Below are positions 202 to 31,474 of a stretch of 32,000 nucleotides of DNA, piece by piece; within the stretch, counting starts at the first letter, position 1, and each line of letters begins with the position of its first letter. A program made the translations under genes and the position numbers. Source of the DNA: Candidatus Thorarchaeota archaeon (GTDB taxonomy: Archaea > Asgardarchaeota > Heimdallarchaeia > Hodarchaeales > Hodarchaeaceae); contig JBHLRO010000002.1 in NCBI GenBank assembly GCA_048882505.1, positions 360,001 to 392,000 on the forward strand, in the 5' to 3' direction. The notes beneath the pieces were generated by a model. The model made no database searches. It was not told the origin of the DNA and was given only the letters and a program-made list of their open reading frames with translations.

Positions 202-1746
202 TTGATGGAAAATCCGAATAAGAAACAAGAATATCCCTTTTTGGATGAACTTGGAATAGAAGAAGTCAATTCTGGAGCTAGTTTTGGACCAGGAAATTGG
301 ACACCTACTGAGGGCAGAGATCTGTTAGAAGTTATATCTCCAATAGACGGAGGTATCATTGCAAAAGTAGCGCAAGCTAATGATGCTGATTATGAAATAA
401 TTGTTAAAGCCGCCACAGAAAACTTCAGACAGTGGCAAATGCTGCCTGCTCCCAAAAGAGGAGACATTATCCGACAATTTGCGAATGCAATAAGAAAACT
501 AAAAGAGCCCCTTGGCAAATTAATCACCTTAGAAATGGGAAAAATCGTGCAAGAAGGAATGGGTGAAGTTCAAGAAGTAATAGATATCGCTGATTTTGCG
601 GTTGGTCTTTCTAGACAGCTTTATGGTGTTACAATGAAATCTGAAAGGCCAATGCACAGAATGTTTGAGCAATGGCATCCATTAGGAGCTATCGGAATTA
701 TTACGGCATTTAATTTTCCTATGGCGGTATGGTCTTGGAATGCTATGATAGCTGCTGTTGCAGGCGATACCATGATCTGGAAACCTTCCTCAAAAACTCC
801 ATTATGCGCAATTGCCATTCAAAAGATTGCCAACAAAGTTATGGAAAAAAATGGAGTAAAAGGGATTTTCAATCTTTGTATAGGAAAAGGGTCTGAAATC
901 GGTGAAAAACTCATTGGCGATCATAGGATCCCATTGATTTCATTTACGGGGAGTACAAGAATGGGAAGACGTGTTGCTGAGGTCACTGCCAAAAGGTTAG
1001 CTCGTTCTATCTTGGAACTTGGAGGTAACAATGCCATAATCGTTATGGATGATGCAGACTTAGAATTAACCGAAAGAGCTATTATCTTTGGAGCCATAGG
1101 AACAGCGGGACAGAGATGTACGACGACTAGACGCATCATTGCTCATGAAAAGATAGTTGATGAACTTACGGACCGATTAGTCAAAGGTTACCAACAAATC
1201 AAAATCGGAAACCCATTAGAAGACGGGATTTTAATGGGACCTCTGGTAGATGGGTCTGCAGTGGAAGAAATGCAGGTGGCATTAGAAGAACTTCCGAATC
1301 AAGGAGGAACAATCGTGTATGGTGGGAAAAAGCTTGATGGTAAGGGTTATTACGTGACTCCTGCCATTATTAGAGTGAATGATAATGTTCAGCGAGTCTG
1401 CCATGAAACTTTTGCCCCAATCCTATATATAATGCCGTTTAGGAACATTGATCACGCTATTCGACTTCACAATGGGGTACCTCAAGGGCTTTCCTCAGCT
1501 ATCTTCACAAACTCTCTAAAGGCTACAGAACGGTTCTTATCTGCTATGGGAAGTGATTGTGGCATAGCAAATGTAAATATAGGTACATCGGGTGCCGAGA
1601 TCGGAGGGGCCTTTGGTGGAAACTGGGATACAGGTTGGGGCAGAGAAGCTGGATCTGATGCTTGGAAGGGTTATATGCGTCGACAGACCAATACTGTTAA
1701 CTGGAGCGATGAATTACCGTTAGCTCAAGGTATCAGATTTGGATAG
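202..1746 (+). CDS. Aldehyde dehydrogenase, ALDH7/antiquitin-like (alpha-aminoadipate semialdehyde / piperideine-6-carboxylate dehydrogenase family)
   Basis: Motifs ITAFNFPMAVW, WKPS, FTGST, LELGGNNA, GTAGQRCTT (catalytic Cys), ETFAPILY, VNIGTSGAEIGGAFGG and [10 protein letters not shown] are typical of ALDH7. Probable ATG at 205. Confidence 0.93.
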   Translation: MMENPNKKQEYPFLDELGIEEVNSGASFGPGNWTPTEGRDLLEVISPIDGGIIAKVAQANDADYEIIVKAATENFRQWQMLPAPKRGDIIRQFANAIRKLKEPLGKLITLEMGKIVQEGMGEVQEVIDIADFAVGLSRQLYGVTMKSERPMHRMFEQWHPLGAIGIITAFNFPMAVWSWNAMIAAVAGDTMIWKPSSKTPLCAIAIQKIANKVMEKNGVKGIFNLCIGKGSEIGEKLIGDHRIPLISFTGSTRMGRRVAEVTAKRLARSILELGGNNAIIVMDDADLELTERAIIFGAIGTAGQRCTTTRRIIAHEKIVDELTDRLVKGYQQIKIGNPLEDGILMGPLVDGSAVEEMQVALEELPNQGGTIVYGGKKLDGKGYYVTPAIIRVNDNVQRVCHETFAPILYIMPFRNIDHAIRLHNGVPQGLSSAIFTNSLKATERFLSAMGSDCGIANVNIGTSGAEIGGAFGGNWDTGWGREAGSDAWKGYMRRQTNTVNWSDELPLAQGIRFG

Positions 1747-1753
1747 ACAAATC

Positions 1754-3406
1754 CTATTTCAAAGTTTGATCATATAAAGCAGCTATAGGGTCACCTAGCA
1801 TTCTCCTTCTATCTAGTACATCTTTCTTTTTCAAGTTCATATCAAACTTCCATGGGAATTCCCTTTGCGCTAGAGAGAGATGCTTTCCTACGGCACCATC
1901 TAAGTACCTAAAGAATTTGTCAATATTAGACTTTGAGGTAATAACTATAAACCAATGTAGATTCTGGGGGTATCGCTTATCGATTTTGTGATGGATTTGG
2001 GAATGAATCCCTACTTGGTTTTTCAACAGACTTGTTAGGAATTGTACATCTTCTTTGGAAAAGGAGAGAGTGTATAATGCAATTTGATTGCTACTAAAAT
2101 GTCCGTCGCCAATATACCAATGCAATAAAATGTTAGGAGTCATTTTAAAACTGCGAGGAACAATTTTCCCCTTATCATATAGCCTATACCAGTTTTTAAA
2201 GACATTCGTAAACTGTATTGTAGAGTTTGTTGTTAAATATATCATCCTGCTGTTTTTATTGTTTCTACCCTTTCTAAGATACTTATTTACATTGGTGAGA
2301 TATCCCTCCTGCCGAAACAGGCTTTCAAGTAATTTTATCCAATTAACTTCTAGTATTGATTTATGGATCTGAAAATACGCTGTGGGATGATCAGCAATAA
2401 TTTGGCAACTTTGATTAAACTTACGAACCAGATCCGGAAGATTGTCTATTTTCTCGAGTGATTTTATCTTCTGAAAGCCTTTAAGTCTCTCACATGAATC
2501 TTTATAATCTTCGATCCTCACATTATGGATTCTGTAACTTCTATTTCTAGGTATATTCAATCCTAGTGATCCATCACCTAAAAGCTCACCAATAAGAACT
2601 TCATTAAGGAGAGTGCTCATTTCACGATCAAATTTGGTGTTGTTTACGTGTTCTCTTATCTTTCTCATAGAGGCAGAATTCTGAACCTTAATACCACAAT
2701 TTCTCAGCTTCTTGCCAATATTCTTTCTATCTATATTGAATATTCTTTCTAATGATCTTAATGTCTTTAAATGTAAAAATTCTAGTACCAGCAATTCGTC
2801 TAAAACAGTTTGTACCTCTTTTTCACTAACTTTGAGTTTCAATGATATTTGTCTAGGATTTTTACCCTCTAACAGCATTCTTTTGACATATTCGAATTGA
2901 TTAGGTTTTAGCTTTTCAAATTCATTGTTGAAGGGCCATTTATGTATTGATCTTCGGTTCACCCCAAGCCTCTTAGCAATTTCAGTAATACTAAGGCCTT
3001 CGACCTGTAGATTAATCACCATTTTAATTAGGTCATCTTTAATTAAAGAGATCAATCGTTGCTTATTCAATCCCAACTTAAGAGAAATCTCATCAACGGG
3101 TTTTCCTCTATCTAGCAAATTCAATGCACTTTTTAGTAATTCTTCCCTTTCAATGTTCATCCGTTCTTCTAAAGCTGTTGCTTCTAGTGTTTCTTCCTTT
3201 TTACGTTGTGTTTCACCCTTCTCTCTGATTTTAGTTAATCCGTATTCAGTTATCCGTTTTCGGATGGTAGGTCGGGAAGTGTGAAAATATCGGGCAATAG
3301 CAGAAATTGTTTCCCCTTGTTCAAGAAGATAGGTTAGATCTTTTTTATCAATGTGTTTTTTCATGTTTGTGGGCATGTTTGTAGGTACATACGGCCGTTC
3401 ATACAT
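1754..3406 (-). CDS. LAGLIDADG homing endonuclease (two-motif, LAGLIDADG_2-like) with about five N-terminal helix-turn-helix modules
   Basis: LAGLIDADG helices EVLIGELLGDGSL and ILLHWYIGDGHF, plus downstream IALYTLSFSKEDVQFL. N-terminal HTH-like units: GETISAIARYFHTSRPTIRKR, GKPVDEISLKLGLNKQRL, GLSITEIAKRLGVNRRSIHKW, GKNPRQISLKLKVSEKEV, LRSLERIFNIDRKNIGKKL. Confidence 0.88.
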   Translation of the reverse strand: MYERPYVPTNMPTNMKKHIDKKDLTYLLEQGETISAIARYFHTSRPTIRKRITEYGLTKIREKGETQRKKEETLEATALEERMNIEREELLKSALNLLDRGKPVDEISLKLGLNKQRLISLIKDDLIKMVINLQVEGLSITEIAKRLGVNRRSIHKWPFNNEFEKLKPNQFEYVKRMLLEGKNPRQISLKLKVSEKEVQTVLDELLVLEFLHLKTLRSLERIFNIDRKNIGKKLRNCGIKVQNSASMRKIREHVNNTKFDREMSTLLNEVLIGELLGDGSLGLNIPRNRSYRIHNVRIEDYKDSCERLKGFQKIKSLEKIDNLPDLVRKFNQSCQIIADHPTAYFQIHKSILEVNWIKLLESLFRQEGYLTNVNKYLRKGRNNKNSRMIYLTTNSTIQFTNVFKNWYRLYDKGKIVPRSFKMTPNILLHWYIGDGHFSSNQIALYTLSFSKEDVQFLTSLLKNQVGIHSQIHHKIDKRYPQNLHWFIVITSKSNIDKFFRYLDGAVGKHLSLAQREFPWKFDMNLKKKDVLDRRRMLGDPIAALYDQTLK

Positions 3407-3527: not shown

Positions 3528-3653
3528 AAAGAGACCGGAGGAGGTAGAGAAGCGGGTTCTGACGCTTGGAAGGGTTATATGCGTCGACGAACCAATACTA
3601 TTAATTGGAGTGATGAACTGCCGTTAGCACAGGGGATTAAATTTGGCTCATAA
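3528..3653 (+). pseudogene. Orphaned (probably original) 3' end of the ALDH7-type gene
   Basis: Translates to [41 protein letters not shown] with no start codon. A 25-nt stretch is identical between 3564-3588 and 1660-1684; most other differences are synonymous. Confidence 0.9.
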
Positions 3654-22866: not shown

Positions 22867-23147
22867 TTTTCGGGCAGCTCCATTTTTGAGGGCACCACGG
22901 AGCCAGTTTTTTCAAAAGGATACAGTTCTTAACTCCTGAGTCATAGGCATATCGTTGCGGAAGTCATTTGCTCCCGGTTTATATCAACGTTGCTCTGATA
23001 TTTCCGAGATGCCAGGTTCAACAGCTTTTAATGTGCCTATTGATCAAGAGACCAATAGTAAGGAACAATCCTTACAATAAATGTGGTTGAAATCCCACAA
23101 GGTCATAGCCCTTCTTCTACCTTGCCCCATCATGAATAAACCAGGTT

Positions 23148-24257
23148 CTATTTGTTCCAATTTTTGAATACAGGGTCGTTATCTAGAGTCTTATCCCATA
23201 CATCATATATGAACATAAGAGGAAATCCCTCGGAATTTCCGATACAGGCAAACCCGATCTTTGTTTCCTTGTAAAAGCCGATTAGAGAGATACCACCCAC
23301 TATTCCACCAGCGACATTCATGAAAGTTTGCCCTTTGTAACCATCTTTAATACCAATGCCATAGCCCTCGAATGAGTCAGTCTTCAGCATTTTTGTCAGA
23401 TTTTCATCTTTTAGGTATCTTGACAGTTTTTTCTCAATAACACTTGGCTTAAATACTGTTTTCCCGCCTACTGATCCATTGTTCATCAGCATGTCAAGAT
23501 AGATGAGCATTTCATTACACGAAGTCACTATGCCTCCTGGTCCCTTAGTAAATTCTTCAAAGCGATATTCGGATTTAGTGAAAGTCAAATTGCCATATTC
23601 ATCCTTTTTTGGCAAATAAGGGACGGTATGGTTATCATCAATAGATGCTAGTTCTTCATCCCCCAACATGATGGTTCTCTTCATATTCAATGGGGTGAGG
23701 ATTAGGCCTCTCATCGCTTCATCAAAAGATTTCCTTGAGGTTTTTTCCACGATCATCGCAAGGAGGGAGTAGCCGATATTAGAGTACATGAATCTCCCCA
23801 GATCAGCCCTGGAGTCCTTGATTATGCTTGCGACACGCTCTAAATATTCCTCTCTTGTGTATCCCATTCTATCGATAAAAATATCCGGCAAACCAGAAGT
23901 ATGAGTCAATAGGTGATGAATGGTGATAGCTTCCGTACCAGTGCTCGTGGTAATCGAAAGATAATCAGATATGGGATCATCTACTGATAGGTTTCCCTGG
24001 TCTTCTAAGAGGAGGATTGCCAAACTGGTGAATGATTTCGAACCTGAACCGAATCGTGCGAGCGTATCCGCGTTGAAATCTTTGAAATTTTTTATGTCGC
24101 GAAATCCAACGCCAAAAGAATAGATAATTGCTCCATCTTCTATGATAGAAATCGCCATGCCTGGAAATTCTCTATTCTCGAACCTCCTCGTTATTTCTGG
24201 TTCAAAATTTTTTTTGAAGTAGTCAATATCCATGTTTATTACCCTTAGGATTAGCAA
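23148..24257 (-). CDS. Serine hydrolase, beta-lactamase class C-like family
   Basis: SxxK (SGSK), YxN (YSN), HLLTHTSGL and GPGGIVTS. Likely ATG at 24233. Confidence 0.88.
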   Translation of the reverse strand: MLILRVINMDIDYFKKNFEPEITRRFENREFPGMAISIIEDGAIIYSFGVGFRDIKNFKDFNADTLARFGSGSKSFTSLAILLLEDQGNLSVDDPISDYLSITTSTGTEAITIHHLLTHTSGLPDIFIDRMGYTREEYLERVASIIKDSRADLGRFMYSNIGYSLLAMIVEKTSRKSFDEAMRGLILTPLNMKRTIMLGDEELASIDDNHTVPYLPKKDEYGNLTFTKSEYRFEEFTKGPGGIVTSCNEMLIYLDMLMNNGSVGGKTVFKPSVIEKKLSRYLKDENLTKMLKTDSFEGYGIGIKDGYKGQTFMNVAGGIVGGISLIGFYKETKIGFACIGNSEGFPLMFIYDVWDKTLDNDPVFKNWNK

Positions 24258-24265
24258 CCAACAGG

Positions 24266-24409
24266 TGGGGATAAAATCATTATATCACTAAATCCCAAGA
24301 GCTACGAAGCTCGAATCAAAACCTCAGACATGGTTATTCTTCATTGTTATGTGCTCTGTTTCTGCTAACAGATGCAATAATGCATGTTTTCCTTAGAAAG
24401 GCTCTCGAG
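24266..24409 (+). pseudogene. Decayed paralogue of the 3' end of the RAMP-HD gene at 27977-28795
   Basis: 24281-24406 translates YITKSQELRSSNQNLRHGYSSLLCALFLLTDAIMHVFLRKAL, against YIYKSKELSLLNESLNYGHSSLRYHLLLITNLIVQDFLRGAL at 28667-28792: 21/42 identical with no gaps. In-frame TAA at 24272. Confidence 0.8.
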
Positions 24410-24517
24410 GTGTTCTTTGTGTAGAATAATCGGAGTAACGTTGTTTTGCTTATGAAACTAGAAGGCGTGCAAGTAAAATGTCAAAGGTTTCTGTTGCAGT
24501 CCCCCATTCTAGGAGGA
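24410..24517 (+). repeat. Copy A of the conserved non-coding element found 3' of the RAMP-HD gene
   Basis: 24439-24504 matches 28825-28890 at 57/66 nt without gaps. Both copies have GTGTT plus a 24-nt variable block before the core and a GC hairpin after it. Confidence 0.75.
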
Positions 24518-24634
24518 GAATTTCGGATACGTGGTCGAGTAGGTAACCTCCAACCAATTGCGGTTCATTTGAAGGACATTAGTTGGGATACCACTCAGTT
24601 ATATCCATTATTTCGCTCTATGGAGCGAAAACGG

Positions 24635-24962
24635 TCACTTGATGTTGTTTCGAAATCTGTCGAGTATATAAAAGGCGCTCGCCATCATATGTAAAGTTTT
24701 GAGGTTTTGCCTATGACTATGAATATCCCTGATATAACTGAGTAATTGGTCCTTGAAGGGGGTCTTCCTCGGCTGGAACCCCTTGATACAGACTACTCCT
24801 CGCACTCCAGCCCGCGGGGTCATTAACGAAAAAATTCCCGCGTGTGCTTGAGTGCCATGAATACCGTGGGAGGATCTTTGAGACCACACGGTGGACCTTG
24901 ACTTCCTCAAACGTATCCGCATCATACAGAATTTTCACCTGACCCCCCCGAGAGGGCTTCAT
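24635..24962 (-). pseudogene. Possible frameshifted small ORF
   Basis: ATG at 24962 lies 16 nt after the 24979 stop. Two overlapping minus-strand frames (24717-24962, 24635-24925) could join at a T6 run near 24830. No motif. Confidence 0.2.
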
Positions 24963-24978
24963 TCGTTGATAAACCGTC

Positions 24979-25770
24979 TTAACCAGGATCGCTTGACTCC
25001 AGGTATGTCGTAAGGAGTCCTAGAATTCCAGAGGTAAGAAACCCGCCGCCTAACGCAGCAAGCGGAAGGTATTGCCATTGTGTTCCCTTAGGAGCAAATG
25101 TGGTAGCGAAGAGGAAAACAAACCCCAACAGAAGAACGCTGGTAGAAAGCAGGCGAATGCTGTGAAAGAACCATGCTGGTGTTCTCCATTTGCTTTTTTG
25201 CCTAAGAGAGATGAACATGTAAGTGAAGAACACAGGTGATAAAAACAGCAGTAGTATCATCCACCCCTCGAGTGGAATAGATTGTAATATTTCTATCGGG
25301 TTTCCATTATTACCAAAGACCTCAATTTCACAGGTGAATATGTTGGTACCCGCCCCTAGCACCGTTGCCTGGAGCTTTATAGTAAGGATTTTCGAGGTGT
25401 AGGTTTCAAAGCTTTTGATTGGCTCTTCTTGGGACGTAACATCTAAGATTCCCCCAGGAGCAAGCATCAGATCTAACAGAATGATTCCAAGGTCAAAATC
25501 AAAGGTGCCTATTGTTATGTTGATATTCCCTGGGTTTGATGGCATAGACGAAATCACTATCTGCTGGATATGATGTACGTTTTTAGTTCGATGAATATAT
25601 TCACTATCACTGAATTGAACCATTTCTTGGGACGTATACTGTTGATCTGACAGCACCCACCCCCCCATTAGCCCTAGGGCAAATACCGAAACAGCAAGTA
25701 ATCCTATTGCCTGGTTTCGTTGAAGATGCAACCCTAATCGTGGAGAAAGCTGCATGTCATTTCCGCTCAA
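24979..25770 (-). CDS. Hypothetical membrane protein (one N-terminal and three C-terminal TM helices)
   Basis: 263-aa ORF with clear hydrophobic segments. Confidence 0.6.
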   Translation of the reverse strand: MSGNDMQLSPRLGLHLQRNQAIGLLAVSVFALGLMGGWVLSDQQYTSQEMVQFSDSEYIHRTKNVHHIQQIVISSMPSNPGNINITIGTFDFDLGIILLDLMLAPGGILDVTSQEEPIKSFETYTSKILTIKLQATVLGAGTNIFTCEIEVFGNNGNPIEILQSIPLEGWMILLLFLSPVFFTYMFISLRQKSKWRTPAWFFHSIRLLSTSVLLLGFVFLFATTFAPKGTQWQYLPLAALGGGFLTSGILGLLTTYLESSDPG

Positions 25771-25815
25771 AATAACCCATCATACGTGGACAGATCAACT
25801 CAACTTCCAATTTGG

Positions 25816-27351
25816 TCAATTATACGTGGACAAATCAACTTCATTTACAGTTTGGCTGTGCATTACATAAGCCCCGGAGGTCCTACTCATAATATACCCA
25901 GTCAGATCCCCAGTTATATGATTGGCATTAAAAGTATGAAGTGTCTCATGCATAGTACCTAGGGTTTGATCCCTCATGAATGGAAATATCCAAATAAAAT
26001 ATCCCTTCATCATGATTGCCTTGTTAGAGTGGCCAGGGCTGTTTAGTCCTGCCACCATTCCATTTGTATTATATTGATTAATATTCGCGAAAAGAAGATC
26101 AAACCCATGATTTTTAGAACTTGTCCCATGGGAACTTTCCCAATCACCTGATAAACCCAAGAGGTCCTTCGCTTTTGGTGCCATTTTGTTGTGGATGAGG
26201 TCATAGATATCGTTTGAGGGAGGATCCCATGTAAACACCATGCTACGAAAGTCCATAGCAAATAAGGTTCGTAAATCAGTAAGTTGTTGGTTGTACCAAA
26301 AGTCTATTAGTTCAATAGTCGTATCAAACCAAGCATTTTCATCGAATTGAATTCTGAACGCTTGATCCACCAAATGAGTTACAAAGACAACGTGAGTTCC
26401 AGACGCGGGGTCATTGACATCAAAATTCCCATGTGCGCTTGAGGGGTAGTAATTGTCACTCCAAGTCCCAGGTGCCCCAGAACCGAGGGCATAAACCCGT
26501 GTTATATCGTAATTACCTCTGTTCAAGGCGTATCTTTTTACTGGAGTCCCAGGAGAGGTGAACATGTAGTCCAAGTAGTCATGTACCACCAGAGTCATAC
26601 CAGATTCTATCCAGCCATTTTCACTATACGTTGGTGTATCATCTTCCCAAGAATTATAGGTATTGCCTTTAATTGTATATAACAAGTACTGTAGAAAGGC
26701 GAAATAGGTAGTAGGATTATATATATACGTCTTAACGTGTTCTGCTTGGCCTTTCTCAGAATCATAGGCGTAAAAACTACTTATGTAAGGGCTACTGGAT
26801 GTAACTGCAGCGCCTCCACCAGCAGTTTGGCTTTCTTGATTTGGTGGCCATTGAGGAGTTATTTCCACTGAATGACGCATTGTGCCAAAGTTCATTTTAA
26901 AGAAAAAGTGCCTGGGTAACAGGGTTGTATTAAGAGTTCTTAAGGCGAACACAACTCGGAAACTGGTACTATTCTCAGCTTTTTCTAGCGTAGTTCCGTT
27001 CGATAGCATCTTGATAACCGGGGATCCATTAGTAAGAGTTTCCATATCAAATGTGTCAGGGATTTGGAGGGAAATATCGGCATCAACCACTGAGACCCCC
27101 GTTTTGGTGCCAGTCAACTGAATTGTGAGGTCACCGTGGTCGTTAACCTCGTAAATCACCGATTCGATGCTAATACTCGCAGGTAGTGAGAAGCTTGCAA
27201 CAATGGCACTTATTGCAATAGCTGTTAACACGAATAGCGCACCTATTCGAAACATGTTATGATACGTGTATTGTTTGGTCTTATTTTTCATCTTTTCACC
27301 TTCAACCTCAGGTTTTTTGATCTCCATCGCTTCCTCGGAGACTTTCTCCAC
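25816..27351 (-). CDS. Secreted or membrane-anchored metzincin-like zinc metalloprotease
   Basis: N-terminal hydrophobic anchor IGALFVLTAIAISAIVASF. C-terminal HETLHTFNANH (HExxHxxxxxH), followed by a Met-turn-like YIMS. Confidence 0.65.
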   Translation of the reverse strand: MEKVSEEAMEIKKPEVEGEKMKNKTKQYTYHNMFRIGALFVLTAIAISAIVASFSLPASISIESVIYEVNDHGDLTIQLTGTKTGVSVVDADISLQIPDTFDMETLTNGSPVIKMLSNGTTLEKAENSTSFRVVFALRTLNTTLLPRHFFFKMNFGTMRHSVEITPQWPPNQESQTAGGGAAVTSSSPYISSFYAYDSEKGQAEHVKTYIYNPTTYFAFLQYLLYTIKGNTYNSWEDDTPTYSENGWIESGMTLVVHDYLDYMFTSPGTPVKRYALNRGNYDITRVYALGSGAPGTWSDNYYPSSAHGNFDVNDPASGTHVVFVTHLVDQAFRIQFDENAWFDTTIELIDFWYNQQLTDLRTLFAMDFRSMVFTWDPPSNDIYDLIHNKMAPKAKDLLGLSGDWESSHGTSSKNHGFDLLFANINQYNTNGMVAGLNSPGHSNKAIMMKGYFIWIFPFMRDQTLGTMHETLHTFNANHITGDLTGYIMSRTSGAYVMHSQTVNEVDLSTYN

Positions 27352-27424
27352 CCTGAAGATCGCTAGTGATTGGCCCGATCCAATATTTAAGGATTTTGAA
27401 CGCTAATGTCCAATATTTATAGCG

Positions 27425-27871
27425 ATGACCACTGATAAAGAAGCCGATAAACATGGGAATGTCTTACTTCCAGAAGGCCTTCATCTCTTAGGAAGCTGTC
27501 TTGCTGGCGAAAAAGAATGCATTCTCCATCAAATCTTTGGCTCCAAAGGGATTGAAGGTAAAATTTCTGTTTACGCAGATCCTATTGCTTCTATATCCCA
27601 CAAAACCGCTAGATTATCTGAATCCATTCAACATGTCCATATCGCTTCTGAGAATCGGATTAACTTGACCTATGATGGTAAAACAACACAGGATTTCAAA
27701 GAACGCTATTTTTCTGGCTATTTCAACTTTGAAATTGATGTGACCCATTGCTCTCCTCAACAGATCGGCTTAGTCATTGAAGGAGCTGTAGCTTTTGATA
27801 GACTAGGCCGAGGTTTCAATACGGGGTATGGTCGAGTTGAGGTCAAAAAACTCCAGTTGCTCAAACGGTGA
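27425..27871 (+). CDS. Cas7-group RAMP protein, apparently 5'-truncated
   Basis: GSC...ECILHQIFGS, thumb-like HIASENRINL and Gly-rich loop RLGRGFNTGYGRVEV, all Csm3/Cas7-like. Only 148 aa, with an in-frame stop at 27404-27406 upstream. Confidence 0.65.
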   Translation: MTTDKEADKHGNVLLPEGLHLLGSCLAGEKECILHQIFGSKGIEGKISVYADPIASISHKTARLSESIQHVHIASENRINLTYDGKTTQDFKERYFSGYFNFEIDVTHCSPQQIGLVIEGAVAFDRLGRGFNTGYGRVEVKKLQLLKR

Positions 27872-28059
27872 AAAAAACACCTGTGTTCGATAATAATGGC
27901 TCCTTTACTGTCCAGAAGAACATCACTGAAGGAGCCTTAGAAACAATGTTCAAGAACGCCCTTGAGGTCTGGCAAAATGGAACTCACGCTCGAAGGGAAA
28001 ATTCTGACTCCCATTATCACGAAGAAAACCATGTTCGAATTAGAGGGCTGTCGTGCTGA
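27868..28059 (+). CDS. Small ORF, or frameshifted C-terminus of the Cas7-like protein
   Basis: GTG overlaps the Cas7 TGA. One extra G would fuse ...LLKR to VKKTPVFD...ALEVWQN. Overlaps the next gene by 83 nt. Confidence 0.35.
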   Translation: MKKTPVFDNNGSFTVQKNITEGALETMFKNALEVWQNGTHARRENSDSHYHEENHVRIRGLSC

Positions 28060-28795
28060 GATCATCACACCGAAGCGGAGGTTCATAACTAAATCCCATA
28101 AGAAACGGAAGATTCATCCCTTCTCTTTCATCGGTTATCTGGGGAGGATCCAATTAACATACAGATGTCAGACCATGCAGCAAGCGAAAGGAAAATTGCA
28201 AACTTTACTACTAATCGATAGTATTGGGAGATTCTGGAGGGAAGGATTAGGACGGGTAGAATGGTTGTCAGGAGAAGTTGGTTCCCAATTTAAACCTAGG
28301 AAAAAGAAATATTTTAGACGCGTAAAAGTCCGCCAAGGGTTACCTCATCACCTCCCCATTCATATTCAGAAACTAATTCGTTATGCCCTACTCCATGATT
28401 TTGTGCATACCTCTAAGCATAAATCCAAAATTTATGGGGAAATCAAGGTTGAAGATCTAAATGAGATCAAAAACCACCATGAAATGTCCGAGAATCCCTT
28501 GATTCAACAGTTTCAGAAGTACGATCGGATTGCCGCCAGGATGACGCGTAACATCCGTTCCCCCCGCACCAATTGCTATACTTGGGAAGCGAAGGGAACA
28601 GTGAATTTTAAAACCTTAGCGCATAAGATCGAACAGGTAGAAAGTAATGTATGGAGATTATATGGATACATCTATAAGTCAAAAGAGTTAAGCCTGTTAA
28701 ACGAAAGCTTAAATTATGGGCATTCCTCTTTGCGATATCACTTATTGTTGATCACGAATTTAATAGTGCAAGACTTTCTTAGAGGAGCTCTCTAA
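27977..28795 (+). CDS. RAMP (Cas5-like) domain fused to an HD nuclease domain
   Basis: RAMP-like start MELTLEGKILTP and Gly loop IGRFWREGLGRVEW. HD motifs ALLHDF, NHH and YDRIAA. The C-terminal SLRYHLLL His resembles the permuted His of Cas10-type HD domains. The ORF track starts at TTG 27962; ATG 27977 is more likely. Confidence 0.65.
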   Translation: MELTLEGKILTPIITKKTMFELEGCRAEIITPKRRFITKSHKKRKIHPFSFIGYLGRIQLTYRCQTMQQAKGKLQTLLLIDSIGRFWREGLGRVEWLSGEVGSQFKPRKKKYFRRVKVRQGLPHHLPIHIQKLIRYALLHDFVHTSKHKSKIYGEIKVEDLNEIKNHHEMSENPLIQQFQKYDRIAARMTRNIRSPRTNCYTWEAKGTVNFKTLAHKIEQVESNVWRLYGYIYKSKELSLLNESLNYGHSSLRYHLLLITNLIVQDFLRGAL

Positions 28796-28899
28796 GTGTT
28801 TCCTGCACATTACAGGCAGAATTCCGTTGGTTTGCTTATGAGATGAGAAGGCGTGGAAGCAAAACGTCAAAGGTTTCTGCTCCAGTCCCCGTTTCGGGG
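28796..28899 (+). ncRNA. Candidate structured non-coding RNA or element end (copy B) immediately 3' of the RAMP-HD gene
   Basis: 57/66 nt identity with copy A. Stem TTTGCTT(28831-37)/AAGCAAA(28857-63) and terminal hairpin CCCCG-TTT-CGGGG (28887-28899). Transcription is not shown. Confidence 0.45.
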
Positions 28900-28914
28900 C
28901 ATCCTTAAGAAAAA

Positions 28915-29496
28915 GTGACGAAAATGGCCACAAATGAAGAAAAAGAAAGGTCATACGGCGACCTACTAGAGGAGCTGTATGATGGCATCATACATCTACA
29001 TGGATCATTATATGAGCCTGATGAGCAATATCGTCGATTGGTTGCGATTGAAGAATCATTAGAAACTGTCCTCAACTGGATAAAGCTAGAAAAGAACAGT
29101 CTGAGGAACTATGAAATCATGGTAGAGTGGACAAAGAAACTTGCTCTAAACACTACTCTTACTACAGCTGATATTCGAAATAGGTTGCGAGTGATGGTTT
29201 TACCCCAGGCTGAATCGTTTATTCAGAATTTAATCACAGGAGAACGCAGCGCCCTTAAGGTTTTGGAAGTAGTAAACAAAAATTTGGAAGAATTACCGTT
29301 TTTTCTCAAATCTGTCAAAGACCAGAACTTTAAATTACTTCAAGCAATTGGATATGACCCAGAGGCAGAGACCTCGTATCTTGAAACTGCGCTATACAAT
29401 TTGGTAATTGGCAGATTAATGGAGTTCGAAAAATCGATTGATTTACTTCGGGCTGCGGCCAAACAAAGTACACAGATAAGTAGAGACATATTATAG
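28915..29496 (+). CDS. Hypothetical alpha-helical protein
   Basis: 193-aa ORF, likely ATG at 28924. No motif recognised. Confidence 0.6.
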   Translation: MTKMATNEEKERSYGDLLEELYDGIIHLHGSLYEPDEQYRRLVAIEESLETVLNWIKLEKNSLRNYEIMVEWTKKLALNTTLTTADIRNRLRVMVLPQAESFIQNLITGERSALKVLEVVNKNLEELPFFLKSVKDQNFKLLQAIGYDPEAETSYLETALYNLVIGRLMEFEKSIDLLRAAAKQSTQISRDIL

Positions 29497-29638
29497 ATAC
29501 CAAAGAAAAACGGTGTAAAGCCAAGTTACCTCCTCAGAACGCAAAAGTACGGGTCTACATCTCTTCATTTGGTGGAAAAGATTTCTGATCTCTCCTAATT
29601 ACCTCCCCTAGCTAAGAACTAAAATCAGGTGCAGAGTC

Positions 29639-31474
29639 ATGAAAAGTAAAAATCCCAAACTTCTGTTTATTCAAAGTATTGCACAACAGGCTCGTCGAAT
29701 GGAGCATGAAATATCCCTGGAAGCCAAATCAGTCGTTAAAAACTTGCAACAGAGGCCCAAATCGTATTATACACTCCAAGATGTGGAGGATGTCATTGAA
29801 GGGTTAAAAACAAAGATGCTAAGTTTAAATAAAGAAACCCACACTGAATTTTCAAAAAAAGGAATTAAAAGCTTAACGAATCTAGCAGATACTGAAATCG
29901 AAAAAATCTCACTAGAGATGCTTGCTTCTGGAGAGGAGGTGAAAAACATTTTAGAAGAACTAGAAACGGTTCGGGAAGAGCTTAAAGTTGTTTCGAAAGA
30001 ACGAGACGAACTCCAAGCCAAAGAGGCAGATATTCAACCGTTACGACTGGAGATCGAAAACCTTCGAATGCTTCTTGGCAAAAGAGATGAGGAGATCGCA
30101 CAATTGAAGAGTCAATCAGGGGTTTTTTCGGGGAAAGTAGAGGATCAAATGCAGGAGCTTAATCGTCTTCAGGAACAACTAGATGAAAGTCAACGAGATT
30201 TAAAGCAAGCCCGGAAGGAGCGCGAAAAAATCGAGGCTGAATTTGAAACGGTTGGCAACACTCTTATGACCACAAGGCTGGAGATTGAAGAACTCCAAAC
30301 CGCCTTGGCGAATAAAGACATTGAAATCGAGAACCTAAAAGCCGAGAATAAGGTTTTGGTTTCCCATACCGAGGAAAACGTTCATCTCAAAGATGAAAAT
30401 CAAAAACTTGGCGAAAGACTTGACCAGTTGAAAACTCAGTTTCAGGACGTAAGTAGACAAAAAACCATGTACGAGGCAACTGTCAATGAACTCAAGGAAC
30501 AAATTTCTCGACTGGAGCAAGAAAACGAGGATCTGCTTTTAGACTCTGGTGAGACCAGTCAAACGGCTGTAACGCTCAAAAATCAGTTAGACAATATAAA
30601 AAGTCAGTTAAATCAAAAAGAAAGTGAAATTCGGGAGATTACAAATCGTTTGGGAGGCGAAATTACTGCGTTAAAGGAAGAACTAGTTGAGAAATTAGCG
30701 CGAACCCAGACGGTTCAAAATAAACTGGATGAAGCCAATGAGGCCATGGAAGAACTAAGAAGGAAAAATCGCGCACTTGAGACCGAAGTGGAGGACATAA
30801 AGGTCGATCAGAAAGGGAAAAACCTTCGTATTGATTCTATTGAATCTGAGCGCGATAAATTGCGTAACCAACTTGCAGATGCAAGAATCGAGAACGAACA
30901 GCAAAAATCAGAGATTTCTAATCTCCAATCTCAAGTAAAAGCCCGTGAGCGGGAGCTGAATGTACTCCAAAATGATCTAGAAGTTATACGTCAACGTCAA
31001 GAGGAAATCGCTAAACAAGCTTCTGATTCTCGTGGAGCCAAGGCGGAAGTTGAGCGTCAAAAGGATTTATATGAGGTGCAACTCCAGAATCTTCAGTTAC
31101 AGATCGAAGATATCACAGAATCTAAAGAAAACCTTGAAAGAAAGCTTGAGGATTCAGCAAAAGAACTAGTAAGAAAGAACGACGAAATCGAGTCGTTAAT
31201 GACCAACCAAAAGCGGTTGGGGACTAGGAACGAAAAACTTTCTGCGGCAGTGGAAACGTTACGTATTAATCTTGCAAAGAATCCGAAATATGCAATTCTT
31301 TTCGTCTTACAAGACATAAAACAGGCTAGCGTCGGTGAACTAGCAAAAACCGTTGCTATCCAGCTGGTTTTTGCGGTGCGTTTGGTAAAAGAACTTGAGT
31401 CCGATGGATGGGTAGATTTCGATGAAGACCAAGGTATTGTTCGATTAAAGCGACCATTATTAGAAAATGATTAG
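29639..31474 (+). CDS. Long coiled-coil protein with a C-terminal winged-helix domain
   Basis: About 450 aa of E/K/Q/L-rich heptads. C-terminal NPKYAILFVLQDIKQASVGELAKTV...RLVKELESDGWVDFD. No Walker motifs. Confidence 0.8.
   Translation: MKSKNPKLLFIQSIAQQARRMEHEISLEAKSVVKNLQQRPKSYYTLQDVEDVIEGLKTKMLSLNKETHTEFSKKGIKSLTNLADTEIEKISLEMLASGEEVKNILEELETVREELKVVSKERDELQAKEADIQPLRLEIENLRMLLGKRDEEIAQLKSQSGVFSGKVEDQMQELNRLQEQLDESQRDLKQARKEREKIEAEFETVGNTLMTTRLEIEELQTALANKDIEIENLKAENKVLVSHTEENVHLKDENQKLGERLDQLKTQFQDVSRQKTMYEATVNELKEQISRLEQENEDLLLDSGETSQTAVTLKNQLDNIKSQLNQKESEIREITNRLGGEITALKEELVEKLARTQTVQNKLDEANEAMEELRRKNRALETEVEDIKVDQKGKNLRIDSIESERDKLRNQLADARIENEQQKSEISNLQSQVKARERELNVLQNDLEVIRQRQEEIAKQASDSRGAKAEVERQKDLYEVQLQNLQLQIEDITESKENLERKLEDSAKELVRKNDEIESLMTNQKRLGTRNEKLSAAVETLRINLAKNPKYAILFVLQDIKQASVGELAKTVAIQLVFAVRLVKELESDGWVDFDEDQGIVRLKRPLLEND

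Follow-up and report, generated by a model that had tools for sequence, protein, structure and literature searches.

The question raised by this locus is whether a CRISPR-derived gene module that carries no array has an RNA of its own. The DNA analysed here is a window of 32,000 nucleotides (nt) from a Candidatus Thorarchaeota archaeon (contig JBHLRO010000002.1, positions 360,001 to 392,000; G000:C2:360001-392000 in the comparison set, in which the prefixes G, L and C label genomes, loci and contigs), and the element in question lies on its forward strand at 28778/28816-28910, directly after a gene of the ARAMP type. The original description of the ARAMP and HRAMP systems is reportedly that of Makarova et al. 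(2020, CRISPR J). In the accessible portions of two published accounts these are array-less, type-III-derived CRISPR-like systems, with an unusual Cas1 homologue in most ARAMP loci, and no RNA component is mentioned (PMC8730458, PMC12669027). A literature search whose reach did not extend to the original ARAMP paper found no RNA described with ARAMP or HRAMP. Comparison among related genomes indicates that the element is a previously undescribed folded RNA of approximately 100-130 nt, situated at the gene-proximal end of ARAMP cassettes in Heimdall-type Asgard archaea.

The comparison is based on 41 homologous copies drawn from 15 of the 22 genomes of the source genus and from a Borrarchaeum-like genus. 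A covariance model (CM), trained on 14 copies with a hand-drawn structure, returned 37 matches in 15 of the 22 same-genus genomes, and in a scan of a 151-genome sample of the phylum its matches were limited to the source genus and one other genus, whose copy is identical to that in a Borrarchaeum weybense record. The source genome (G000) holds eight copies; three further copies lie on the forward strand in a 6.4-kb stretch elsewhere on the same contig (G000:C2:93293-93401, 97953-98071 and 99584-99686), one of them directly preceding an Orc1/Cdc6 gene. Additionally, 43 loci encoding relatives of the upstream gene (the RAMP-HD fusion gene, c0) were fetched, and in the loci of the nearer clade the element again follows directly after the c0 stop codon, with its stems clearly exchanged. 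No Rfam 15 family reached its gathering threshold in the window, and none was matched at E values up to 10 in 28700-28960; the family is new in that it is not in Rfam. ARAGORN found no tRNA in the window or beside the related copies.

The core fold (28816-28880, forward strand) consists of a stem P1, a junction and a stem P2. P1 pairs 28816-28821 with 28875-28880, together with CC at 28824-28825 and GG at 28872-28873, and in the CM alignment all eight of its pairs show double changes. The junction that follows, CCGUU (28824-28828), is near-invariant. P2, which pairs 28829-28836 with 28858-28865, shows double changes at nine of nine pairs, with as many as six pair types per position, and its strands have been almost wholly exchanged with pairing kept. 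Such a pattern indicates a fold that is kept by compensatory changes across dozens of copies. In the 41-copy CM alignment the covariation measure is 0.483 against 0.204 after shuffling, a value reached by none of 500 shuffles, and 80.8% of paired cells can pair against 64.1% after shuffling. A control in which partner strands were slid by 1-3 columns, which preserves the relatedness of the copies, lowered covariation to 0.07-0.15. Since the 41-copy alignment had been fitted to the model, the count was repeated on plain MAFFT alignments, where P1 and P2 together gave 0.419 against 0.197 for shuffled columns. The 14 best copies, submitted to RNAalifold, yielded P1 and the base of P2 de novo. The paired columns of the 41 copies contain 100 G.U cells and 57 A.C cells, an excess that indicates the forward strand. 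The conserved secondary structure proposed in a first-pass annotation of this DNA is thereby strongly supported, now with 41 homologues.

Above P2, the segment 28837-28857 is predicted to form a kink-turn-like module capped by an apical hairpin. A bulge of 3 nt (28837-28839) is followed by two sheared pairs, G28840.A28857 and A28841.G28856, which constitute the kink-turn signature, and then by the covarying stem P2b (28843-28845 with 28852-28854), which closes the hexaloop AGAAGG (28846-28851). For P2b, a gapless alignment of 24 columns was made without reference to this stem, and the covariation in it is 0.647 against 0.274 shuffled, again with 0 of 500 shuffles reaching the value. The elements of a kink-turn, namely a canonical stem, a 3-nt bulge, tandem sheared pairs and a non-canonical stem, are thus all present, flanked by the covarying P2 and P2b. 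The pair at the kink-turn position -6/+6 is G.A in 37 of the 41 copies, with a bulge of the form xAU, and the pair at -5/+5 is A.G in 22 copies and U.G in 14.

Downstream of the core stands P3, a GC hairpin (CCCCG-UUU-CGGGG, 28887-28899) with double changes at five of five pairs; across the family its sequence and length vary (the shortest is about 13 nt, the longest more than 45 nt), and it is missing in three divergent copies. A 3' tail, (C)AUCCUUAAGA, occupies 28900-28910 and contains CCUU (28903-28906), which can pair with AAGG of the hexaloop (28848-28851). A loop pairing with a downstream strand, with covariation between the two, is the arrangement of an H-type pseudoknot. This loop-tail helix is paired in 91.9% of cases, two of its pairs show GC-to-AU double changes in separate lineages (few events), and in three divergent copies a loop AUAGG is matched by a tail CCUA(U). 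Information content falls to background 4-5 nt after CCUU, which places the end of the element at a fixed nucleotide, 11 nt past the hairpin. It had been suggested that similarity stops abruptly after the GC hairpin, and that a fixed stopping point be sought there; a fixed nucleotide does end the similarity, 11 nt farther on than proposed, and family-wide conservation runs through 28910.

The 5' side of the element is less sharply defined. Read from the sequence, a hairpin P0 of 8 base pairs (bp) with a 3-nt loop lies at 28778-28796 and contains the c0 stop codon (28793-28795), and about half of the homologues have a hairpin of 7-9 bp, with another sequence, at the corresponding position. Its single-copy significance is weak, and the part formed by P0 and the UGCAC motif is moderately supported. 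UGCAC itself (28804-28808) is conserved, single-stranded and located between P0 and P1; in most copies, including some orphans without a remnant of c0, it lies about 8-12 nt before P1.

The structural proposal had originally been drawn from two copies within the window, which can now be placed in the family. A BLAST search of the region against the window returned a single other copy: positions 28825-28890 of the copy described so far (copy B) match 24439-24504 of copy A at 57 of 66 positions (86%), and a weaker similarity continues about 60 nt upstream (73% over 134 nt). The nine differences counted at the outset are all there, including the two switches from G-C to G-U, which fall in P2 (C28860 to T and C28865 to T, from copy B to copy A). 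The others are G28830 to T, at a P2 position mismatched in B and paired in A; G28842 to A, at the 3b position of the kink-turn; T28844 to C, which turns a U.G of P2b into C-G; G28845 to T, which breaks a P2b pair; G28856 to C, which breaks the sheared A.G pair of the kink-turn; C28880 to T, in the outer pair of P1; and C28882 to G, in the linker. As two copies supply only wobble changes, this pair alone is suggestive and not conclusive. The CTG-NNN-CAG mini-hairpin that had also been drawn finds no support, the CTG being part of the P1 3' strand, which pairs with CAG at 28817-28819. A further candidate, a 24-nt "variable guide block" at 28801-28824, was likewise rejected: the block is the UGCAC linker plus the P1 5' strand, and in copy A its counterpart continues to form P1 with the 3' strand, by means of G.U pairs, so it is no spacer.

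Copy A (24428-24522, forward strand) is a decaying relic, scoring 51.8 bits with the CM against 104.1 for B and lacking both the tail and the pseudoknot partner. Its neighbour, ending 21 nt before it, is a stop-interrupted remnant of the C-terminal part of c0 (residues about 224-275, 37% identity), and copy A is orthologous to a relic in the sister genome G016. The abrupt end of similarity after the hairpin is true of A against B only, because copy A lost its 3' part at an indel junction.

The genes beside the RNA identify the module to which it belongs. The first, c1 (p148, 27425-27871, forward strand), is a Cas7-like RAMP gene (PADLOC Csm3, E 1.8e-5) that is broken: it aligns with residues 90-235 of a 277-aa orthologue (L019:3184-4017) at 73% identity, about 89 N-terminal residues are missing, and the open reading frame (ORF) stops at the position of residue 235. 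The orthologue itself matches Pfam RAMPs (E 9e-4) and PADLOC Csm3 (9e-8). The second gene, c0 (27962-28795, forward strand), encodes 277 aa, is apparently intact and ends with the stop codon at 28793-28795; the RNA lies on the same strand, about 21 nt farther on. All 93 homologues of c0 come, by their source names, from Asgard archaea and carry no Pfam domain; those named are hypothetical proteins of Heimdall-, Hod-, Thor-, Hermod- and Odin-archaeota, with many paralogues per genome. A profile search of the PDB with the c0 alignment gave no match, and Foldseek against the PDB gave weak RAMP matches (E about 0.01); the HD domain came to light only in the VIA-wide structure comparison. In an AlphaFold2 model built with 31 homologues (pLDDT 82), residues 1-108 match RAMP subunits of types III, IV, I and VII (Csf/Csm4/Cmr, Z up to 7.6) and residues 127-272 match the HD domain of Csm1/Cas10 (6ifk_A 2-218, Z 7.4; 6mua_A, Z 7.1), the HD motif being invariant in the 31 homologues. 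As modelled, c0 resembles a fusion of an N-terminal RAMP fold with a C-terminal Cas10-like HD domain.

Three features of an ARAMP locus are found together: a diverged Cas7-like RAMP, a second, Cas5-like RAMP with a nuclease domain, and no adjacent array. No regularly spaced repeat family or tandem array occurs in the 32-kb window, and with one unit per locus and no repeat-spacer periodicity the element does not have the form of a CRISPR repeat or crRNA. Among the ten ORFs scanned around the locus none matched Cas1; Borrarchaeum-type relatives encode an 852-aa protein, c7, with a Cas1 domain (PADLOC 6.3e-12). In relatives, the c1-c0 pair has two small genes of no assigned function upstream, or is accompanied by a Cas1-domain, LAGLIDADG or GIY-YIG protein. 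The ORFs scanned around the locus, and those scanned in related loci, include no RuvC nuclease of the TnpB/IscB type. Judged by its reading frames and its predicted fold, the module in the window looks half-dead, in that the Cas7-like gene is truncated and the RAMP-HD gene and RNA copy B look intact.

Near the C-terminus of c0, the codons for N-L-I-V (28757-28766) are conserved at the nucleotide level as AATTTAATAG in most homologues. The string resembles a TATA box about 50 nt before P1, and most remnants with a recognisable c0 fragment keep it, sometimes in degenerate form; it could be an internal promoter.

The linkage to RAMP genes that had been proposed is borne out by the wider sample. 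In 25 of the 41 cases the RNA stands after c0 or a C-terminal remnant of that gene, most often about 21 nt past the stop codon, and three more copies are cut by contig ends with the c0 end still visible. Only about nine copies have a full-length c0 before them and about 16 have a C-terminal piece of 25-125 aa; 13 have no c0 sequence there. The mean CM score declines along this series, from about 88 bits after full c0 to 64 after fragments and 52 without c0, and the orphan copies have eroded stems. In G016, the relic before the host gene p193 has lost its hexaloop and pseudoknot, yet p193 is 96% identical. By these measures the quality of the predicted RNA falls as the neighbouring RAMP-HD gene decays.

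The position of the cassette in the genome is equally regular. A segment of 4.4 kb (24512-28916), containing p263, p511, the c1 fragment, c0 and RNA copy B, is present in the window and missing at the orthologous locus of G016, with flanks that align closely (23000-24511 with L099rc 38-1549 at 92%, and 28917-30363 with L099rc 1654-3101 at 91%). G016 has in its place 104 nt, including an AT-rich, promoter-like stretch. The left junction lies inside P3 of the relic copy A and the right junction just past the tail of B. The host gene that follows, p193 (28915-29496, forward strand, from the ORF list), has no assigned function and could start at GTG 28915, ATG 28924 or ATG 28934, every one of these within 25 nt of the RNA tail.

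Elsewhere the genes past the tail, on the same strand and often within 0-20 nt, include those for aRF1, Orc1/Cdc6, MutL, an FMN-dependent dehydrogenase-like protein, a LipA-like radical-SAM protein, PCC and HAD. The gene for L7Ae, whose promoter and leader are conserved in 16 of 20 genomes, lies downstream of the RNA in four genomes, at +61 to +107. In G007 a 3.1-kb cassette (c6-c8-c1-c0-RNA) sits exactly between the L7Ae promoter and leader, with the native promoter kept on the left and a right junction reading CCUUAAGACG|CCCGACC, and neither a target duplication nor an inverted repeat was found at this insertion. A different and older insertion precedes L7Ae in G000 and G016. In G011 the tail abuts the ATG of aRF1, replacing the native promoter and leader (about 45 nt). 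No conserved left-end element was found at the sole left junction that could be resolved. In distant ARAMP clades, cassettes stand before EF-2, Snf7/ESCRT-III and GIY-YIG genes, with a recognisably related RNA in the same place. Taken at the level of alignments, the cassette with its RNA behaves as an insertion directly before housekeeping genes.

Several observations accompany these host genes. The L7Ae-upstream insertions of L065/L079 (G000, G016) and L082/L083 (G002, G007) differ in their junctions and RNA subtypes. L7Ae is a kink-turn-binding protein, and the RNA inserted upstream of it itself has a kink-turn signature. A conserved leader (CCGACCAAGGAUUGGG...AAGACCCUGGAGGUCG) about 60 nt before the L7Ae start codon is found in 19 of 19 readable upstream regions (L104-L123) and may correspond to the kink-turn leader through which archaeal L7Ae is known to regulate itself.

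With these elements in place, the reading preferred here, at a probability of about 0.55, is that a structured non-coding RNA is encoded at 28778/28816-28910, as the 3' module of the ARAMP cassette and its cognate RNA component. That the RNA would work with the ARAMP proteins is suggested by its fold, its strand bias, its fixed position after the RAMP-HD gene and the decay that it shares with that gene. Transcription of the RNA would accompany or closely follow that of the RAMP-HD gene, and L7Ae, the kink-turn protein of archaea, whose gene is present in the genome, would bind the putative kink-turn, so that the RNA probably carries L7Ae there. The RAMP domain of c0 and the Cas7-like protein would recognise the RNA, which would act as a dedicated scaffold or handle of an ARAMP ribonucleoprotein, replacing array-derived crRNAs. 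ARAMP and HRAMP have been catalogued as array-less CRISPR derivatives, and the RNA offers a concrete candidate for the partner that such "guide-less" systems appear to lack.

A number of points weigh against this reading. RNAalifold applied to all 41 copies, relics included, recovers only five P2 pairs, and the consensus energy that it reports is weak. The folding energy of single copies on either strand is no better than that of shuffled sequences (z -0.4 to +0.15), and the evidence for structure is therefore comparative and not thermodynamic. The 41 sequences are mutually related, and shuffle tests overstate their independence. The second sheared pair of the kink-turn is U.G and not A.G in 14 of the 41 copies. 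The correlation between CM score and the state of c0 is partly circular, because the model was trained on the best copies, and the trend could merely reflect the age of insertions. Lastly, in many loci (aRF1, Cdc6, FMN_dh-like, the c21 family, PCC, HAD, p193) a start codon stands 0-20 nt past the tail, a proximity that would also fit a role of the RNA in expressing the downstream gene.

Such a role, in which the element would be a cis-acting leader or expression adaptor, a portable promoter and 5'-untranslated region for the host gene downstream of the cassette, is unlikely on the whole and stays alive because of these close start codons and the retention of right-end remnants. The element would keep that gene expressed in spite of the insertion, or bring it under the control of the cassette. 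P3 and the pseudoknot might then hide or expose the translation start, and the RNA would act on the downstream mRNA instead of on a RAMP partner. The junctions fit: the element of G011 supplants the aRF1 promoter and leader up to the ATG, that of G007 meets the L7Ae leader close to where transcription natively begins, and remnants always keep the right end while their left truncations vary, as would be expected if an essential gene needed that end. P3 loops are also often A/T-rich and lie at about -25 to -35 from the start codon; however, the P3 loop of copy B is UUU, with no TATA-like box. The distance to the next gene ranges from 0 to more than 300 nt, and in G000 and G016 the RNA is separated from L7Ae by that gene's native promoter. 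The decay of the G016 RNA before p193 in its hexaloop and pseudoknot, next to a conserved p193, and the eroded stems of orphans without c0 are also at odds with a leader function, and the downstream genes share no common pathway, unlike a riboswitch regulon.

It is quite improbable that the element instead works as DNA, being the right end of a mobile ARAMP cassette or its attachment site. A recombinase or nuclease, whether Cas1-like, LAGLIDADG or of another kind, would then recognise it, and the fold would be a by-product of DNA hairpins. The sharp and fixed 3' boundary would be accounted for in this way, as would three insertion or replacement polymorphisms whose right junction is at the tail, the newer cassette within the P3 of an older relic in the window, the two different insertions upstream of L7Ae, and the Cas1-domain, LAGLIDADG and GIY-YIG proteins of ARAMP relatives. 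Against it, the ratio of G.U to A.C cells marks the structure as strand-specific, and the kink-turn signature and compensated loop-tail pseudoknot are features of RNA, which make a purely DNA-level role less likely. The one fully resolved insertion has no terminal inverted repeat or target-site duplication, the left end has no conserved element, and paralogous cassettes of the same genome are just 50-76% identical in protein, giving no sign of recent transposition. That the two copies are a non-functional duplicated relic, their similarity and pairing inherited by descent, is barely credible, since the decay of copy A, the shuffle-like energies of single sequences and the inflation of shuffle tests by kinship, which would suit it, are outweighed by stems exchanged almost wholly with pairing kept (up to six pair types per P2 position), by slid-partner controls that preserve kinship and already contradict it, and by the occurrence of the element in two genera, with 15 of 22 genomes of the first carrying it.

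If the RNA is a cognate component of the cassette, its place among known systems can be described by comparison. The locus resembles published ARAMP and HRAMP systems in its Asgard host, its diverged Cas7-like RAMP and second RAMP fused to a nuclease domain, the absence of an array or adaptation module from the window and the unusual Cas1-domain protein of relatives. It differs in the structured RNA after the RAMP-HD gene, where the accessible portions of the published accounts describe array-less systems and mention no RNA, and in that the cassettes are insertions directly upstream of housekeeping genes.

The resemblance to IS200/IS605 right ends and omega-RNAs of TnpB/IscB, raised in the first-pass annotation, holds in its geometry: the RNA starts in the 3' end of a nuclease-domain gene, is structured and pseudoknotted, and marks the right end of an inserted cassette with a fixed last nucleotide beside unrelated host sequence. 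It fails in its components, as there is no TnpB, IscB or other RuvC nuclease, no TnpA, no Rfam match and no sequence relation, and the effector genes are class-1-type RAMPs. Single non-array RNAs beside cas-type genes are also known as cr-like, tracr-like and CreA-type RNAs (bioRxiv 10.1101/2023.03.03.530964; CreTA), which are presumed to load an effector for a non-immune or regulatory role; those are degenerate CRISPR repeats with a pseudo-spacer, whereas here there is no repeat-like unit and the fold is far more elaborate. With the L7Ae-bound kink-turn RNAs (box C/D and H/ACA sRNAs, RNase P RNA and the L7Ae mRNA leader) the RNA shares a stem, a 3-nt bulge ending in U, tandem G.A/A.G pairs and a non-canonical stem, and some copies contain a perfect UGAUGA string like a C box. 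It differs from them in having no terminal C/D boxes, guide-length antisense elements, ACA box or pseudouridylation pocket, and its kink-turn is one module within a larger pseudoknotted fold.

By analogy, a guide role like that of omega-RNAs is possible. The further idea that ARAMP cassettes are RNA-guided selfish elements, a class-1 counterpart of the TnpB/IscB omega-RNA systems, is rather unlikely as it stands, and both the sharp boundary and the insertion behaviour agree with it. The structured RNA would then be a scaffold whose transcript crosses the fixed right boundary and takes in the first bases of the housekeeping gene beside it. This flank would serve as the guide of a Cas7-like/RAMP-HD complex recognising the unoccupied allele, and HD, Cas1-like, LAGLIDADG or GIY-YIG activities would make the cassette home to the 5' ends of essential genes or keep it there. 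Insertion upstream of essential genes, in the case of L7Ae twice independently, suggests either a new mobile or addictive element in the closest archaeal relatives of eukaryotes or a new wiring of host expression, the latter meaning that host-gene expression would be tied to a CRISPR-derived complex.

Other identities for the RNA were considered and rejected. The string CUGAUGA...GAA in some copies recalls a hammerhead ribozyme, which was ruled out as the essential G5 is not conserved (copy B has U). An H/ACA or C/D sRNA was ruled out by the lack of an ACA box and of terminal boxes and by a junction that is invariant where guide pockets vary. Together, the 3' arm of P3 and the tail (GGrGG-n-AUCC) look much like a sequence complementary to the 3' end of the 16S (GGAUCACCUCCU), as an extended Shine-Dalgarno sequence would; this was set aside because the spacing to the start codon is 13-15 nt and many P3 arms are not G-rich.

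Further observations concern related loci and the rest of the window. The distant clades (L026-L055) have conserved downstream RNA-like sequences of their own, one type reading AUCUCA..AUCGGCAAG..GAUGCUGAGAUGCAU and the distant Borrarchaeum type having a 10-bp hairpin downstream, and the gene upstream in these loci encodes a LAGLIDADG-domain protein (c3) or an 850-aa Cas1-domain protein (c7). Four loci from different genomes (L090, L069, L094 and L023) have a common string, CTCAGACTGGGACGGTGTC, directly past the tail, where ARAGORN finds no tRNA. Homologues of p511 adjoin truncated ARAMP modules in G016 (cluster c11); an integrase identity for p511 was ruled out, and the protein atlas gives only weak metalloprotease-like leads. 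The region of a 96-aa ORF (24635-24925) and the 511-aa ORF (25816-27351, minus strand) share 40 nt at 83% identity (24813-24852 with 26404-26443). Farther away, a direct repeat of 116 nt (1627-1742 and 3531-3646) shows 82% identity between copies 1.9 kb apart.

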